Shown here: positions 7,792-55,738 of the stretch, piece after piece
How the letters are laid out: each line of letters opens with the position of its first letter
Numbering within the stretch: position 1 is the first letter of the stretch
Assembly: GCA_020854775.1 (NCBI GenBank)
Contig: JAHKLZ010000005.1
Location: 49,797-113,796, forward strand
Length of the DNA stretch: 64,000 nt
From: Candidatus Woesearchaeota archaeon
GTDB taxonomy: Archaea > Nanobdellota > Nanobdellia > Woesearchaeales > 21-14-0-10-32-9
Direction: 5' to 3'
The notes under the pieces: model-generated
What the model saw: only the letters and a program-made list of their open reading frames with translations
Told to the model about the DNA's origin: nothing
The model's database searches: none
Program-made: the position numbers and the translations under genes

Positions 7792-7819
7792 AATAACTAT
7801 TTTTTAGTGGTTACTAATC

Positions 7820-7830
7820 GTTATGTTTAT
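7820..7830 (+). promoter_or_regulatory. archaeal TATA box (GTTTATATATT) upstream of paralog B
   Basis: TATA-like element about 30 nt upstream of the ATG at 7857. Confidence 0.35.
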
Positions 7831-7856
7831 ATATTCTTTTTGTTCAACTGTTTTTT

Positions 7857-8213
7857 ATGAATATTAATTACGATTCTAATAAATTAAATACTCTTTGGTC
7901 TTTGTTGAGGAATCATTCTAATTATCCTGGTAAGCATGTTGGTTTAAAACAAGTTATGTTTCATTTGAACGTGGATGATTTTAGGAAGAAACATTCTAGT
8001 AAGATAATTAATGGTTGTGAAAGCATCGTGACGACTAATTTAGATGATGCTATTTCTCGTATTAGCAATAGTAGTATTAATTATTATCATCTTAGTTGCG
8101 TTGGTAATATTCTTAATGGGGCTAATTCTGCTGTTTGTGTTCATTTTAAGAATAATAAAGATAATAAGCATTATGCTTTAGCCATACCTGGTACTAATTA
8201 CATAATTAAATAA
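7857..8213 (+). CDS. hypothetical protein, paralog B of a tandem pair
   Basis: 118 aa. Same motif set as ORF 7369..7791 (YHLSC..AVCVH..LAIPGTNY). Highly diverged copy. Confidence 0.5.
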   Translation: MNINYDSNKLNTLWSLLRNHSNYPGKHVGLKQVMFHLNVDDFRKKHSSKIINGCESIVTTNLDDAISRISNSSINYYHLSCVGNILNGANSAVCVHFKNNKDNKHYALAIPGTNYIIK

Positions 8214-8249
8214 AAAAGAGAATAAAAAATAAAGAAAAATAGTTAAGCT

Positions 8250-8684
8250 TTATTTCCTAGCTTTTTGTAATTTGCCGTTTAGAAGTGCTTCTAGGCTTTG
8301 ATCGTTTACTTTGATTACTTGCCATCTTACTCCTGGTAAGTCTCCTTTTGCTCTGCCCATGTTACCACCCATGCACTCTACGACTACTTCGTCGTGTTCG
8401 TCAACCATTTTTTGAGCTCCGTCTCCTGGTAAGAAAGCTGTTATTTGTCTGCTGTTCTTAACTAGTTGTACACGGACGCATTTTCTCATTGCTGAATTTG
8501 GTTGTTTTGCTTCTCTTTGTACTTTTTCTAGTACTATTCCTGAAGCTTGACTTGAGCCTTCTAATGGGTCTGATTTCTCTTTTAAGCCGAGTTTTTTAGC
8601 GTACCATTTGTATTTCTTTTTCTGTTCAGTTCTTCTCTTAATTAGTTTTGTTCCTGCGTTTATTCCTGATGCTTTTTTACTCAT
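8250..8684 (-). CDS. rps12: 30S ribosomal protein uS12
   Basis: Strong match to archaeal S12 (...[16 protein letters not shown]...). Start taken at MSKKASG inside the listed ORF. Confidence 0.9.
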
Positions 8685-8689
8685 TGTTA

Positions 8690-9106
8690 TCACACTACTT
8701 TTATTTCTTTTATTTCCTCAAAGTATTTTTTTACTATGTCTTCATAGTTTCTAAGGTTTTGGGCTCTTGCACCAATCATTAATCCTTTTGTTTTGGTGTC
8801 TGTTCCCTTAATCGTGATTATTCCTTCAATCATGTTTATGTCTTCCATTTTTAATGGATGCATAATGTTTTTAACGAAATCTAAAACATTAGGATTAAAT
8901 TCCACTATTTTAATGTTTCTATTAGTTGCTTTGACGAGTTTTTGAACGTTTTCTTTTTTATCTCCGAGTGCTTTTCTTAGTTCTCCGTGTTGTACGATGA
9001 AATACAATTTGTCTTTGTTCGTGAAGCAGTCTTTTAGTTTTGCTCTCGTTATTTTTTCGAACATAGTCATTATTTGCAGTGTTTGCACATCGTATTTAGT
9101 CTTCAT
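8690..9106 (-). CDS. nusA: archaeal NusA-like transcription termination factor (KH domains)
   Basis: KH-domain NusA homolog in the conserved position between L30e and S12. Start moved to the internal Met (MKTKYDV), which gives a 4-nt ATGA overlap with L30e. Confidence 0.75.
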
Positions 9107-30835: not shown

Positions 30836-30897
30836 GATGGACTCTGCGATATCCTCAACACTTGTTTCAGGACCGCAAACTCCTGATGGACTCTGCG
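30836..30897. repeat. 13-bp direct repeat (GATGGACTCTGCG) copying the tRNA-Ala 3' end, copies at 30836-30848 and 30885-30897
   Basis: Exact duplicate of the acceptor-3'/discriminator region about 50 bp downstream of the tRNA. A hairpin (CAGGA...UCCUG) lies between the copies. Confidence 0.5.
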
Positions 30898-30995
30898 GGA
30901 TTTGAACCCGCGGCCTCACGATCTTTGGACAAAAAAAATTTTTTTTATTCTTTTGTGTGCCAACCGAGCGCTCTACCAGACTGAGCTAAGAGCCC
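30887..30995 (-). tRNA. tRNA-Ala (anticodon GGC) with a ~35-nt intron at 37/38
   Basis: G3:U70 identity pair (GGGCUCU/AGAGUCC), discriminator A, anticodon loop UUGGCA|A, T-loop UUCAAAU. The anticodon stem has one U:U mismatch. The intron carries A8/U8 self-complementarity. Confidence 0.55.
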
Positions 30996-40217: not shown

Positions 40218-40412
40218 TCATGCTTGTATTTGGTAAGAATACGTGTTTCGTTTGCCTGCTGTTTTAAATTTTACTAGATTGGCTTTTCTTAATTTTTTTA
40301 AGGACATAGTTACTGATCCTATGCTTGCGTTTATTGATTCGCTTATTTCTTTAGATGTGTACCATCCTTTTTTGTTTTTTACGAGGAAATCGTATACTTC
40401 TTGTTGTCCCAT
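40218..40412 (-). CDS. small winged-HTH transcriptional regulator
   Basis: 64 aa with a wHTH (SKEISESINASIGSVTMSLKKLRKANLV). Divergent from the large gene at 40530. Confidence 0.5.
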   Translation of the reverse strand: MGQQEVYDFLVKNKKGWYTSKEISESINASIGSVTMSLKKLRKANLVKFKTAGKRNTYSYQIQA

Positions 40413-40529
40413 ATTTTGTTACATTGTGTTATCAATATATAAAGCTTTGCTTGTTTTTCTTGGTTTGGAATGAAAAAATTAATAAAAATCATTATAAATA
40501 AGTGTTACAATTAGTTTTTTCATGGTTGT

Positions 40530-42182
40530 TTGGTGGTTTTTATGAATAAGATTGAGCAGAGAATTATTCAAGCATTGACTTTGAGTAAGAATTCTGATAT
40601 TTCTACGACTGTTTTGGTTAAGAGTGTTTTTCCTTCTGAGTATGAGGAGTTGGTTTCTTTGATGAATAATCCTCAGCGTGATTTTGAGTTGGTTAAGATT
40701 GGTAAGCGGAATAAGGCTCGTCTTCATAGGAAGTTGTTGTATCATTTGAATAAGTTATCTGAGGATGATTTTATTAAGATTACTAGGGTTGTTGGTAAGG
40801 GTGAAAAGTTTTTTTGTTTGAATCATGAAAAAATTGTTCTTGATAAGAAGGATTTCGCGGTTAGGCGCGTGGTTGAGAGTATTTCTTCTTTAAAGGATGA
40901 TGTTCCTTTTTTGTCTGGTATTGAGGAGTACGAGGATGATAGGGTTGTGAAGCGTTTTGATTCTCAGAATTGGCTTACTAAGATTAATTCTTTTGTGTTG
41001 GAGTGTTCTCGTTTTCAAAGTATTAAGAAGTTGTATGAAACTCTTAGTGAGTCATATCCTATTTTTAATGACGTTGTTGGTTTGTTGGATTTTCAGGACG
41101 TGGTTGATAAGAGTTCTGTTGAGGAGCAGACTAATTTTTTGCGTAAGATTAATATTGATACTAAGGATTATAATAAGTATGTTAATCTTGTTTTTGATTT
41201 GACTAAGGTTAGGAATTATGTTAGGTTGAGTGATTTTTTTGATGTTTTTTCTGAGGTTAATCCTGATAAGGTCTTTGTGATTTTTCAGACTAATTCTAAG
41301 ACTTTGTCTGGTCAGAATCGTTTGATTAGTAGCGTGGTTAAGAATTTTTCTGAGAAGAAGATAAGGGTTAATGTTCAGAATGTTGATTTGCATAAGGCTC
41401 CTTATATGATTGGTAGGGCTGGTGCTTATACTTTTGATGAGCAGGATTGGGAGCTTTATTGTTCTAAGGTTCGTGGGAAAACGATTGGTGTTTGTTGTTC
41501 TGAGACTAGTATTTATATTGATATTTATCGTTCTTTTAAGGATAAGGTTAATTATTCTGCGTTTCGTGAGTTGATTATGAAGATTGCTCGTGCTTTGTTG
41601 TTGGCTACTTCTACTCAGCGTAAGAAATCTGATTCTTTGTTTAGGCCTGTGAATAAGCTTAATCAGGGTTTTCAGAGTAAGTTTTTTAGTTTTTCTTATA
41701 ATTATATTAGGTTGTGGAATTATGATTTGTTGTTTAGTCAGGAGCAGGATAAGGATTCTGGTTTCGTGATTTTTAATGATTTGTTGATGAGCGCGGTTGA
41801 TGAGTTGGATGAATTCTGTAAGTCTGAGGAGACTATTTTTAGATCTTGTGGTATTCCTATTCGTTTTAAGATTGTTTTGTCTAGTGCGTTTAGGCGTTTT
41901 GATAAGGATTTTTTGAGTCCTAGGATTTATAAGAAGGTTTTGATTAAGAGTTTGTCTGATTATTATTCTGATATTATTGTTAGGGACATTCGTAGGAGAG
42001 AGTCTTTGTATAAGGTTTTTAGGGGCGGGGATAGGGTTCGTTTTTTTAGGGATTCTAGGTCTTTGCCTGAGGAGATAATTTCTGAGTTTCATTTTTTGTT
42101 AACTAATCATTATTTGCCTTTTTTTACTTATGATTTTAGGTCTTTGAGTGGCGAGGTTACTTTGGATAGTTTTTTTAGGTGA
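40530..42182 (+). CDS. large hypothetical protein (550 aa) with an N-terminal wHTH
   Basis: The N-terminus resembles a wHTH (IEQRIIQALTLSKNSDISTTVLVKSV). The remaining ~470 aa has no recognisable domain. 4-nt overlap with the downstream thyA-like gene. Confidence 0.4.
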   Translation: MVVFMNKIEQRIIQALTLSKNSDISTTVLVKSVFPSEYEELVSLMNNPQRDFELVKIGKRNKARLHRKLLYHLNKLSEDDFIKITRVVGKGEKFFCLNHEKIVLDKKDFAVRRVVESISSLKDDVPFLSGIEEYEDDRVVKRFDSQNWLTKINSFVLECSRFQSIKKLYETLSESYPIFNDVVGLLDFQDVVDKSSVEEQTNFLRKINIDTKDYNKYVNLVFDLTKVRNYVRLSDFFDVFSEVNPDKVFVIFQTNSKTLSGQNRLISSVVKNFSEKKIRVNVQNVDLHKAPYMIGRAGAYTFDEQDWELYCSKVRGKTIGVCCSETSIYIDIYRSFKDKVNYSAFRELIMKIARALLLATSTQRKKSDSLFRPVNKLNQGFQSKFFSFSYNYIRLWNYDLLFSQEQDKDSGFVIFNDLLMSAVDELDEFCKSEETIFRSCGIPIRFKIVLSSAFRRFDKDFLSPRIYKKVLIKSLSDYYSDIIVRDIRRRESLYKVFRGGDRVRFFRDSRSLPEEIISEFHFLLTNHYLPFFTYDFRSLSGEVTLDSFFR

Positions 42183-42841
42183 TGTTTATGGAGCTTACGA
42201 GTAATAGTGCTTTGGATTTGTGGAAGCGCGCGGTTTTGCTTATTAGGGATAATGGTAGAGATTTTACTGATAATGATAGTAGGGTTTGTCGTGAGTTATT
42301 TAATCTTGTTTTGAATCTTGAGTGTGTTGATGATTCTGGTGTTGATGAACCTATTAAGACCATGATTGAGTCTAAGAAATGGGTTTATCCTTCTAAGGAG
42401 GAGTTGTCTGGTATTATGTTTAAGGAGTTTCAGGCTCCTATTTATGAGTATACTTATGGTGGTAGAATTTTTGGTTTTGGTAATGAGCTTGATCAGATTA
42501 ATTCTTTTATTATTCCTTTGCTTTCTAGGGATCCTAGTTCTAGGCGCGCAGTTCTTGTTTTTTATGATCCTTGTGAGGATTCTAAGATTGATAATAAGAA
42601 TACTCCTGGTATTATTTATGTTCAGTTCAGGGTCGTTGATGATAAGCTTAATATGAATTGTCATATTCGTAGTAATGATTTGTTTTTTGGTTGGCCTGCT
42701 AATATTTATCAGTTGTTTTGTTTGATGAGCTTTGTTTCTAAGAAGCTTGATTTGAAGAATGGTACTATTACTACTTTTAGTAATTCGGCTCATGTTTTTG
42801 TTGATGATTTTTCTGAGGCTGAGGATGTTTTGGGTGTTTGA
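42179..42841 (+). CDS. thyA: thymidylate synthase ThyA family (short archaeal form), atypical active-site loop
   Basis: Conserved ThyA blocks DPSSRRAVLVFYDP, IRSNDLFFGWPANI and FSNSAHVFVDD. The position of the catalytic P-C-H aligns to T-P-G-I. Confidence 0.7.
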   Translation: MMFMELTSNSALDLWKRAVLLIRDNGRDFTDNDSRVCRELFNLVLNLECVDDSGVDEPIKTMIESKKWVYPSKEELSGIMFKEFQAPIYEYTYGGRIFGFGNELDQINSFIIPLLSRDPSSRRAVLVFYDPCEDSKIDNKNTPGIIYVQFRVVDDKLNMNCHIRSNDLFFGWPANIYQLFCLMSFVSKKLDLKNGTITTFSNSAHVFVDDFSEAEDVLGV

Positions 42842-42850
42842 GGTGGTTTT

Positions 42851-43033
42851 GTGAAAGTTCCTAAGGAAAAGCCTTTATCGAAGGATGCTGTCATTAAGTT
42901 GTTGAGGGAAGAGATTGTTCGGAAGGATGGAGAGATTGAGCGTTTGAGGAAGGAGAATTCTTTGTTGTTGAATGTTACTTATAAGAATGCGAAGCGTAGA
43001 GTTGAGGAAATTCACGAGGTTGAGGATGATTAG
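42851..43033 (+). CDS. small coiled-coil protein
   Basis: 60 aa. Last gene of the putative 40530-43033 operon. Confidence 0.25.
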   Translation: MKVPKEKPLSKDAVIKLLREEIVRKDGEIERLRKENSLLLNVTYKNAKRRVEEIHEVEDD

Positions 43034-43641
43034 TTTTGGTTGTTTATTTTTTGTTTGAGTTTTTCGAAGTCTTTTTCTAGTGTTTCTTTTAAGTCGGGGT
43101 TGTATAGTGTTGCTGCAGGGTGGTACATAGGCATTATTATTAGTTCGTTTATTTTTTGTGTTTCTCCGTGTAGCTTTGTTATTCCTTGTATTTTGTTCAT
43201 TCCGTTCGTTGTGAATCCTGCTAGTACGAATTTTGTTGCGTAATTTCCTAGGGTGCAGATTATTTGTGGGTTTATTATTTTTATTTGTTTTATTAGGTAA
43301 GGTGTATGATTTTTTATTTCTTCTGTGGTTGGGTTTCTGTTTTTTGGTGGTCTGTATTTTAGGATGTTGGCGATGTACACGTCTTCCATGGTTAGGTCTA
43401 TTTTTTTTAGTAGTTCGTCTAGTTTTTTTCCTGCGGATCCTACGAAGGGTATTCCTTGTTGGTCTTCTTTTTCTCCAGGTGCTTCTCCTATGAATAATAT
43501 CTTAGCGTCGGGGTTTCCTTTTCCGAATACTAAGTTAGTGGCTGTTTTTTTTAGTGGGCAGTTCAGGTTTTCTTTTATTTCTTGTTCTATTATTTTTAGT
43601 TGTTCTTGTTTTGAATCTTCTCTTAATGTTGTTTGTGTCAT
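43030..43641 (-). CDS. udg: uracil-DNA glycosylase, family 4-like
   Basis: GEAPGEKEDQQGIPFVGSAGKKL motif. Only one Cys lies where the family 4 Fe-S cluster usually sits. Confidence 0.7.
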   Translation of the reverse strand: MTQTTLREDSKQEQLKIIEQEIKENLNCPLKKTATNLVFGKGNPDAKILFIGEAPGEKEDQQGIPFVGSAGKKLDELLKKIDLTMEDVYIANILKYRPPKNRNPTTEEIKNHTPYLIKQIKIINPQIICTLGNYATKFVLAGFTTNGMNKIQGITKLHGETQKINELIIMPMYHPAATLYNPDLKETLEKDFEKLKQKINNQN

Positions 43642-55623: not shown

Positions 55624-55738
55624 GCCTTTGTAGCTCAGTGGTAGAGCGTCTGCCTCGTATCCTCTAAACGAGTTTTTTAGGACTCGATTAAGGGGTGGAG
55701 TAAGCAGAAGGTCGCGAGTTCAAATCTCGCCAGAGGCT
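55624..55738 (+). tRNA. tRNA-Thr (anticodon CGU) with a 43-nt intron at 37/38 (55660-55702)
   Basis: Acceptor GCCUUUG/CAGAGGC with discriminator U, anticodon stem UCUGC/GCAGA, loop CUCGUA|A, T-loop UUCAAAU. Mature length is 72 nt. Confidence 0.7.

Follow-up and report, generated by a model that had tools for sequence, protein, structure and literature searches.

A thymidylate synthase-fold protein lacking the catalytic cysteine is encoded beside a winged-helix protein with a ribonucleotide reductase-like barrel in DPANN archaea

Can a protein of the thymidylate synthase (ThyA) family still make thymidylate when its catalytic cysteine has been replaced? This question is raised by a 64-kb chromosomal stretch from a DPANN archaeon, Candidatus Woesearchaeota archaeon (the window), which also carries genes for RNA polymerase subunits, ribosomal proteins, the thermosome, ThrRS, DUF655, eRF1 and Elp3. 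An open reading frame (ORF) at 42179–42841 (+) encodes a protein, here called ThyL, whose translation contains the ThyA-like blocks DPSSRRAVLVFYDP, IRSNDLFFGWPANI and FSNSAHVFVDD and reads T-P-G-I at the position of the ThyA nucleophile. A sequence-only reading of this DNA had drawn attention to these motifs, to a Cys-His dipeptide (N-C-H) 17 residues downstream of the glycine and to a cysteine in DPCED 12 residues upstream, and we found all of them in the translation. It had also placed the start of the gene at GTG 42179, which needs correction. All homologs begin with MEI or MEL, gene callers also use the ATG at 42188, and an exact database match (P0001, a 'hypothetical protein' on a 541-kb contig of a Candidatus Woesearchaeota metagenome-assembled genome (MAG)) is 217 residues long and 100% identical to ThyL. 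Because the homologs share this start and P0001 has this length, ATG 42188 is almost certainly the real start, giving a gene of 217 codons plus stop at 42188–42841 (+).

By both fold and significant sequence similarity, ThyL belongs to the ThyA family. It matches Pfam PF00303 (E = 2.4e-16) and, over its full length, the methanogen-type ThyA family TIGR03283 (E = 2.8e-33), which is its best sequence-family match, and its AlphaFold model has a predicted local distance difference test score (pLDDT) of 93. However, its score of 115.1 bits lies below the trusted cut-off of TIGR03283 (174.55), so that ThyL falls outside this equivalog family. Three independent alignments confirmed that a glycine (Gly144 counted from the GTG, Gly141 counted from the ATG; codon GGT at 42608–42610 (+)) occupies the position of the nucleophile, Cys146 of Escherichia coli ThyA. 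A phmmer alignment to E. coli ThyA and MilA placed Gly144 on the nucleophilic cysteine, hhalign of the family profile with E. coli ThyA placed P143-G144 on P145-C146, and hmmsearch of the family profile against Bacillus subtilis ThyA gave the same result, so ThyL has glycine in place of the cysteine of the Pro-Cys-His/x motif. As controls, we inspected five proteins that score above the TIGR03283 cut-off (P0189, P0190, P0194, P0203 and P0208; 179–233 bits), and all five have Pro-Cys at this column. The suggestion that methanogen-type enzymes place their nucleophile differently is therefore not borne out, and neither is the possibility that bona fide archaeal ThyA enzymes carry glycine here and draw the nucleophile from the N-C-H or DPCED cysteine: the relatives above the cut-off retain Pro-Cys, and neither of the other two cysteines is conserved. 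All characterized ThyA-family chemistry depends on a covalent adduct between the cysteine and C6 of the pyrimidine. From the alignments, ThyL is predicted to be unable to use the canonical ThyA mechanism, and covalent activation of C6 is predicted to be impossible in most members of its clade.

We observed the same substitution throughout the family. We compared ThyL with 121 close homologs (43–86% identity to the query) and with 76 orthologs from GTDB species-representative genomes (36–64% identity; 77 sequences in the alignment). The nucleophile column was G81/S24/A15/C1 among the close homologs (Gly, Ser or Ala in 120/121) and G48/S16/A9/C3 among the species orthologs (73/76). We built a rough neighbour-joining tree, without support values, from 123 representatives; all Cys-less proteins fell into one clade of 72 members, with 35 Ser, 27 Gly, 4 Ala, 1 Leu, 1 Val and 4 Cys at this column, and the 50 representatives outside that clade all had Cys. 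Because the Cys-less proteins form one clade, a single ancient loss of the cysteine fits the data. The ratio of nonsynonymous to synonymous substitution rates (dN/dS), estimated from a single pair with an 85%-identical ortholog, was approximately 0.34 for ThyL and 0.29 for the gene upstream of it (described below), and 46 of the 217 positions of ThyL, among them Tyr93, Glu39, Asp167 and His205, are at least 90% conserved. These values indicate that ThyL is under purifying selection, and the alignments indicate that loss of the cysteine is a trait of the family rather than a local mutation.

Extreme strand bias in composition is a feature of the whole window (1–64000): regardless of gene orientation, AT skew lies between −0.10 and −0.50, and GC skew, for the most part positive, reaches +0.48. 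As a consequence, codons for Phe, Leu, Val and Gly abound in plus-strand genes and codons for Lys, Asn and Glu in minus-strand genes. This skew, together with the fact that a single substitution converts TGT to GGT, is what could be said for the proposal that T-to-G pressure, a sequencing error or pseudogene decay removed the cysteine codon. The chance of this is practically nil: the gene has an uninterrupted reading frame, at least three independent assemblies encode the identical protein, and the conservation of the column in 73 of 76 species at 36–64% identity, the dN/dS of 0.34 and the 46 conserved positions refute it. By contrast, the idea of an inactive or neofunctionalized homolog, which the sequence-only reading had listed beside mutational pressure, agrees well with the score below the cut-off, the clade-wide loss of the cysteine, the dN/dS and the invariant residues that the clade has acquired.

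Could the nucleophile be supplied from elsewhere, so that ThyL would still be a thymidylate synthase? The candidates are another cysteine of ThyL, Ser144 in the members of the Ser type, which make up roughly 20–50% of the family, or an invariant cysteine of the upstream-encoded protein acting in trans. We rejected the two cysteines flanking Gly144 as alternatives, as neither is conserved: among the close homologs, C132 (in DPCED) is mostly Val, Leu or Ile, and C161 (in the Cys-His dipeptide) is A47/C40/S13. A further candidate is Cys37 (codon TGT, 42287–42289 (+)). It lies two residues past Arg35, an arginine specific to the clade, and is conserved only inside the Cys-less clade, in 105/121 close homologs and 54/77 aligned sequences, with Ser, Ala, Phe, Tyr, Ile, Leu or Thr in the others, which include about 20 of the 76 species. 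However, it is missing from approximately 30% of species with no compensatory pattern at position 144, and we rejected it as well. Several members have no nucleophile at either position (Ala/Ala at 37/144 in loci L017 and L018; Tyr/Gly and Ile/Gly elsewhere), Gly or Ala at position 144 cannot serve as one, and no cysteine of ThyL is universal across the family. Judged from its position relative to the equivalent of Arg21, Cys37 would also sit beside the phosphate-loop arginine rather than the pyrimidine. Spatial statements of this kind, here and below, rest on alignment and topology. The invariant cysteine of the upstream protein, Cys436, sits just before a barrel strand and not on an exposed arm.

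Two further observations bear on a relocated nucleophile. NCBI and JGI records label proteins of the ThyL family 'thymidylate synthase', and we found no other route to thymidine 5′-monophosphate (dTMP) in the 64-kb window, in which there is no RHRxxS motif of the flavin-dependent synthase ThyX and no relevant Pfam match in ten further ORFs. Against this, one Woesearchaeota contig (L046) encodes a second, Cys-containing ThyA of 325 residues (7801–8778 (+)) 1.2 kb downstream of its Cys-less gene. Because the two coexist, the two ThyA-type genes of L046 are presumably not redundant. The second ThyA belongs to a bacterial-type family of 330-residue proteins, with closest relatives in Hydrogenedentes, Latescibacteria and Planctomycetota, and was likely acquired horizontally. 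A search for canonical ThyA in the genomes with ThyL, made with this protein as the query, led to that bacterial-type family and is uninformative about the other genomes. Overall, we regard a thymidylate synthase with a displaced nucleophile as highly doubtful.

Apart from the cysteine, the nucleotide pocket is largely retained. The phosphate-binding residues of E. coli ThyA, Arg126′/Arg127′ and Arg166/Ser167, correspond to R122-R123 and R164-S165 of ThyL, both at least 90% conserved. Also present are the equivalents of Asn177, which selects uracil over cytosine (N175, 77/77 sequences), Asp169 (D167, 71/77), His207 (H205, 77/77) and the general base Tyr94 (Y93, 76/77). The equivalent of Arg21 could be R35 or R38, and this assignment is uncertain. 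One clear change is at Tyr209, which forms a hydrogen bond with the 3′-OH of the deoxyribose: ThyL has Phe207, and Phe is found in 68/77 orthologs, whereas Cys-type relatives have Tyr in 66/70. Compared with the Cys-type clade, the family has gained R35, C37, W68, Y70-P71, E75, F98, G171 and Q178, of which G171 and Q178 lie within a GWPANIYQ motif; R35, W68, Y70-P71, E75, F98 and Q178 are invariant and specific to the Cys-less clade. The invariant aromatic residues are W15, W68, Y70, Y89, Y91, F98 and W172. The pocket for a uracil 5′-monophosphate thus looks intact in the alignments, and its conserved residues suggest that ThyL binds deoxyuridine monophosphate (dUMP), dTMP or uridine monophosphate (UMP).

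The most informative clue in the sequence-only reading is its remark that the gene is translationally coupled to an unknown protein of 550 residues. We found that this upstream gene (40542–42182 (+)) encodes 546 residues and is the constant companion of ThyL. In a sample of loci seeded with the motif GWPAN[ILV][YF]Q, which covers part of the clade, 75 loci had upstream sequence; in 74 of these, including 71 of the 72 that come from GTDB species, the gene directly precedes that of ThyL in the same orientation. Most spacers measure −15 to +15 nucleotides, and a 4-nucleotide overlap is common. In the sole exception (L049, 5941–6651, with 6 kb of upstream sequence), no such gene lies nearby and a gene for an MscS-type channel is upstream. 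The gene also precedes the 85%-identical ortholog, and four distant Cys-less members (28–36% identity to the query) have it, or a fragment encoding its C terminus, immediately upstream. These counts indicate that it is a near-obligate partner of ThyL. In the window the two genes do not overlap once ATG 42188 is taken as the start; a Shine–Dalgarno-like hexamer (AGGTGA, 42177–42182 (+)) that contains the partner's TGA stop (42180–42182) lies 5 nucleotides before the ATG, and tight coupling is plausible.

We found no fusions of the partner with ThyL among 147 representatives and no copies of the gene pair in viral contigs (IMG/VR). The genes flanking the pair vary between lineages and are mostly housekeeping genes, which speaks against a mobile island and in favour of a core module passed on vertically. 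A defence-system or phage origin was considered and rejected, as there was no PADLOC match, PHROG matches were to generic thymidylate synthases only, and there were no IMG/VR relatives. The partner family comprises 111 database clusters, all from MAGs of Woesearchaeota, Nanoarchaeota, Pacearchaeota or Aenigmatarchaeota type. Many contigs with the gene pair (L007, L010, L013, L018 and others) are titled 'uncultured Methanosarcinales archaeon', and among the record titles of L062 and P0117 one names an Acidobacteriota and one a Leptospiraceae; such titles probably reflect placeholder naming or mis-binned MAGs.

What is the partner? Its predicted structure combines an N-terminal winged helix (residues 1–95, 40542–40826 (+)) with a ten-stranded α/β barrel (residues ~125–546, 40914–42179 (+)) of the type found in the catalytic subunits of ribonucleotide reductases (RNRs) and in glycyl-radical enzymes. 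The barrel is ordered as five strands, a β-hairpin (PYMIGRAGAYT, residues 287–297, 41400–41432 (+)) and five further strands. The position of the hairpin between strands 5 and 6 suggests that it is the equivalent of the finger loop of RNRs, which carries the thiyl cysteine. P287, G291 and G294 of the hairpin are near-invariant and its tip is usually Arg or Lys, and there is no cysteine within it in any of 74 species; if the hairpin is the finger loop, the thiyl cysteine of the barrel appears to have been lost. We also found neither a glycyl-radical motif (RVxG[FY]) nor a radical domain at the C terminus; the chain stops 15 residues past the last barrel strand, and its sole RV-containing C-terminal motif is DRVRFF, without glycine. 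No gene for an activase or an NrdB-like radical source recurs across the loci examined, and the N terminus lacks an ATP-cone, a domain common but not universal in RNRs. A single near-invariant cysteine remains in the two-protein module, Cys436 of the partner (codon TGT, 41847–41849 (+)), in an S-C-G-[IM]-P motif found in 73/74 species.

The putative RNR ancestry of the partner is invisible to sequence methods. The protein has no Pfam, NCBIfam, PADLOC or PHROG match, Pfam searches with all 83 family members were also empty, two profile searches against PDB sequences gave no match and no RNR, and hhalign with E. coli NrdD returned a probability of 0.1%. The winged helix is never missing, and the most invariant positions of the partner are T22, K58, H62, R63, L66, Y67, N70, G87, E88 and K89; the basic recognition helix KRNKARLHRKLLYHLNKL and the wing KGEKFF are nearly invariant. 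In structural superpositions the winged helix aligned with Zα domains (ZBP1, 58 residues at 1.2 Å and 29% identity; ADAR1, 1.2 Å), and invariant Tyr67 in the recognition helix and aromatic Phe91 in the wing recall the Tyr/Trp pair of Z-DNA binders, a resemblance that we treat as a lead only.

Cys-less copies of ThyA also occur outside this module. A Ser-type ThyA-like paralog lies 6 nucleotides after thyX in L085 (1431–2695), a basal Ser-type paralog directly follows a Cys-type MtrA–ThyA–PterinBD fusion in L086 (119–2206), and the tandem two-copy proteins P0249 and P0175 combine a first ThyA domain of the Cys type with a second of the Ser type. Because these Ser-type paralogs adjoin an active ThyX or a Cys-type ThyA, an accessory role is suggested, with Cys-less ThyA copies as recurring accessory subunits. 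A related possibility is a heterodimer in which ThyL, itself inactive, would donate its Arg-Arg pair to a competent ThyA encoded elsewhere, with the adjacency of ThyL to the RNR-like gene reflecting co-regulation only. The ThyA active site does use Arg126′ and Arg127′ from the other subunit, ThyL retains this pair, and the L086 and tandem arrangements place a Ser copy right after a Cys copy. However, the conserved neighbour in the 75 loci is the RNR-like protein and not a ThyA, the only second ThyA nearby is the bacterial-type, probably horizontally acquired gene of L046, and ThyL keeps a complete nucleotide pocket of its own, which a mere arginine donor would not need. We therefore consider a heterodimer of this kind very improbable.

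Together, these findings make it very likely, in our judgement, that ThyL is not a canonical thymidylate synthase and that it forms an obligate module with its RNR-fold partner. We propose that ThyL is a neofunctionalized, non-covalent uracil-nucleotide-binding subunit of this two-protein module, most likely with a nucleotide-sensing function, and we give this proposal as a whole a probability of roughly 45%. According to this proposal, ThyL would descend from a methanogen-type thymidylate synthase and would still bind a uracil 5′-monophosphate nucleotide, but would form no covalent Cys–C6 adduct and so would make no dTMP by the canonical mechanism. It would act with the partner, translated from the same message and apparently likewise stripped of its radical apparatus, and the two former enzymes would form a nucleotide-binding complex tethered to nucleic acid. 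Within this complex, ThyL would read a dUMP- or dTMP-type pool through its retained pocket, the barrel of the partner would read a second nucleotide, and the invariant winged helix would couple this reading to the binding of DNA or RNA. The module would thus be a sensor or regulator of nucleotide pools rather than a biosynthetic step. We favour this reading because both catalytic cysteines appear to be gone, a basic winged helix has been added and the Ser-type paralogs look accessory. We infer the physical complex, the identities of the ligands and a regulatory rather than catalytic output, and the sensor or regulator mechanism taken by itself is tentative, at somewhat less than even odds.

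Several observations weigh against a sensor. Nearly the whole former active site of ThyL is kept except for Cys146 and Tyr209, including the general-base tyrosine, which would equally fit a non-covalent enzyme. The barrel of the partner has invariant polar residues (N149, N176, D177, N280, D327, R360, R390 and N393) that, with Cys436, look catalytic. Neither sites on DNA nor target genes were identified for the winged helix of the partner. In addition, most lineages have an Lrp/AsnC-like regulator and a conserved operator at the operon, an arrangement more typical of metabolic operons than of genes for regulators.

Of 77 loci, 50 had a divergent Lrp/AsnC-like gene. We also found an inverted repeat, TGTTTCAG-N7-9-CTGAAACA, that immediately precedes the operon's TATA-like box and lies approximately 30–260 nucleotides upstream of the partner gene (L004–L079; for example, L029 4279–4345 and L013 4172–4293). 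At least one exact half-site occurred within 260 nucleotides in 58 of 68 loci, at a density there of 7.0 per kb, approximately 85-fold above the 0.083 per kb in the remainder of these loci. The repeat was present in 49 of 51 loci carrying the Lrp-like gene, and it is probably the operator of the Lrp/AsnC-like regulator. It was absent from the window (40413–40541) and from the window's own sub-lineage. There, a divergent gene for a 64-residue winged-helix protein with weak Pfam helix-turn-helix matches (40218–40412 (−)) stands in place of the Lrp/AsnC-like regulator of most other lineages. We considered CTGAAACA as the target of the partner's own winged helix and rejected it, as the window lineage has the same recognition helix but not this motif, and the motif's distribution follows that of the Lrp-like gene.

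The main alternative to a nucleotide-sensing module is a new two-enzyme system of pyrimidine-nucleotide metabolism. ThyL would then work without an enzyme nucleophile on a substrate activated by a cofactor, in the manner of the flavin-dependent ThyX. The RNR-like barrel would act through Cys436, as an unconventional or non-radical enzyme, and the winged helix would provide autoregulation of the kind known from trigger enzymes, BirA among them. Besides the Lrp/AsnC-type regulator and the operator enrichment, the 46 highly conserved positions of ThyL speak for this alternative, as do its invariant aromatic residues, which could line the site of a large cofactor, and the invariant polar residues and Cys436 on the barrel strands of the partner. 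Against it, we recognized no cofactor-binding motif, we know of no non-radical enzyme with an RNR/PFL barrel, and cofactor biosynthesis is generally limited in DPANN archaea. Furthermore, no characterized ThyA-fold enzyme works without the cysteine, and even the ThyA-fold synthases of 5-hydroxydeoxycytidine monophosphate (5hodCMP) keep Cys146 (PMC13326640). We consider a two-enzyme system less likely than not. A further reading, in which the RNR-barrel protein with Cys436 and the nucleophile-less ThyA together form an unknown catalytic system for deoxy- or thymine nucleotides, seems improbable to us. If true, it would add a third type of thymidylate synthase, or another class of RNR-derived enzyme, operating without a canonical thiol adduct, glycyl radical, B12 or R2, which would suit cofactor-poor DPANN archaea, and the annotated 'thymidylate synthase' would be functional after all, by new chemistry.

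A 60-residue, charged, coiled-coil-like ORF directly follows ThyL in the window (42851–43033 (+)) and is the third operon gene in one sub-clade; homologs occupy the same position in 12 other species loci, the ORF is called as a gene in L001–L004 and L087, and it matched no family. Convergent with the operon is a family-4 uracil-DNA glycosylase (43030–43641 (−); PF03167, E = 3e-38), an arrangement seen in 12 loci including the window. A functional link to a dUMP-binding protein is conceivable, or the arrangement may reflect the synteny of the lineage. Elsewhere in the window, Rfam gave two long transfer RNA (tRNA) matches missed by ARAGORN, at 30887–30995 (−; 109 nucleotides) and 55624–55738 (+; 115 nucleotides), which are probably intron-containing archaeal tRNAs.

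We found no published description of the Cys-less ThyA clade or of the gene pair in the literature on such homologs, on MJ0757 and on RNR and thymidylate synthase in DPANN archaea; this coverage was incomplete, and an earlier description is possible. The folds themselves are known; what appears new is their combination, together with the loss of catalytic residues in both proteins and an RNR ancestry hidden from sequence searches. One consequence concerns annotation: given the 'thymidylate synthase' labels, metabolic reconstructions of Woesearchaeota, Pacearchaeota and Aenigmatarchaeota may credit these archaea with a dTMP pathway that they probably lack, at least in its canonical form, which bears on how host-dependent these symbionts are. 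A widespread DPANN family with hidden RNR ancestry would also be useful for the history of the RNR/glycyl-radical superfamily. The pattern is a rare one: two consecutive enzymes of DNA-precursor synthesis have apparently both been stripped of their catalytic cysteines, fixed as a pair and joined to a nucleic-acid-binding domain. This joint loss in a fixed pair with such a domain suggests either a new type of archaeal nucleotide-pool sensor or new chemistry. To our knowledge, archaea generally lack NrdR. With two small, soluble proteins to work on, both possibilities are open to direct tests.

The closest known relatives of ThyL are the methanogen-type ThyA proteins (TIGR03283, ~200–220 residues), to which it is a sister or derived clade in the neighbour-joining tree. 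ThyL has the same short form of ~215 residues without the C-terminal segment that closes over folate, and the two share E39, N42, Y91-x-Y93-G, S-R-R, D134, R-S-x-D, P-x-N and S-A-H. They differ in that ThyL scores below the family cut-off, has Gly, Ser or Ala in place of Cys and mostly Phe in place of Tyr209, and reads GWPANIYQ where Cys-type proteins read AWPxNA[FY][GA]. Their contexts differ as well: ThyL pairs with an RNR-like protein, whereas Cys-type proteins occur alone or fused to MtrA-like and pterin-binding DUF4346 domains. The fused proteins P0186, P0191 and P0199 (~470–515 residues) have the MtrA-like domain at the N terminus and the DUF4346 domain at the C terminus, and this fusion may explain how a short ThyA lacking the folate-closing C terminus holds its pterin.

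The flavin-dependent dCMP 5-hydroxylases, or 5hodCMP synthases (PDB 9iqc and 9iqu of phage HY126; RB69 gp48), are likewise short ThyA-fold proteins, at ~217–234 residues, that have left folate chemistry. They keep Cys146, carrying N177D for cytosine specificity and a diagnostic D169N (PMC13326640). ThyL has Gly144, Asn175 and Asp167 at these three positions, which separate it from the cytosine-nucleotide modifiers. A further difference is that the 5hodCMP synthases come from viruses; viral contigs yielded no ThyL. The CMP hydroxymethylase MilA and the T4 dCMP hydroxymethylase resemble ThyL in having a polar residue (Asn, Asp or Glu) at the position of Leu143, but both have the nucleophilic cysteine and an Asp at the position of Asn177, and ThyL has neither. 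ThyX, whose fold is unrelated to that of ThyL, shows that methylation of dUMP does not strictly depend on an enzyme nucleophile.

For the partner, the nearest comparison is with the class III RNR NrdD and the RNR/glycyl-radical enzyme superfamily, from which it differs by an identity of only 8–13% and a length that is ~130–170 residues shorter. Compared with NrdD, it has an N-terminal winged helix in place of the ATP-cone, lacks the glycyl-radical motif and domain and the C-terminal Zn site, has no activase gene nearby, and carries G-[RK]-x-G rather than a thiyl cysteine in its putative finger loop. A precedent for such a fate is provided by the inactive RNR large subunits of betaherpesviruses (UL45 of human cytomegalovirus and M45 of murine cytomegalovirus), in which an RNR barrel without catalytic residues has been re-used for a non-reductase role. 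Unlike the partner of ThyL, these proteins derive from class I R1, are still recognizable from sequence, and have neither a winged helix nor a pairing with a ThyA-like protein.

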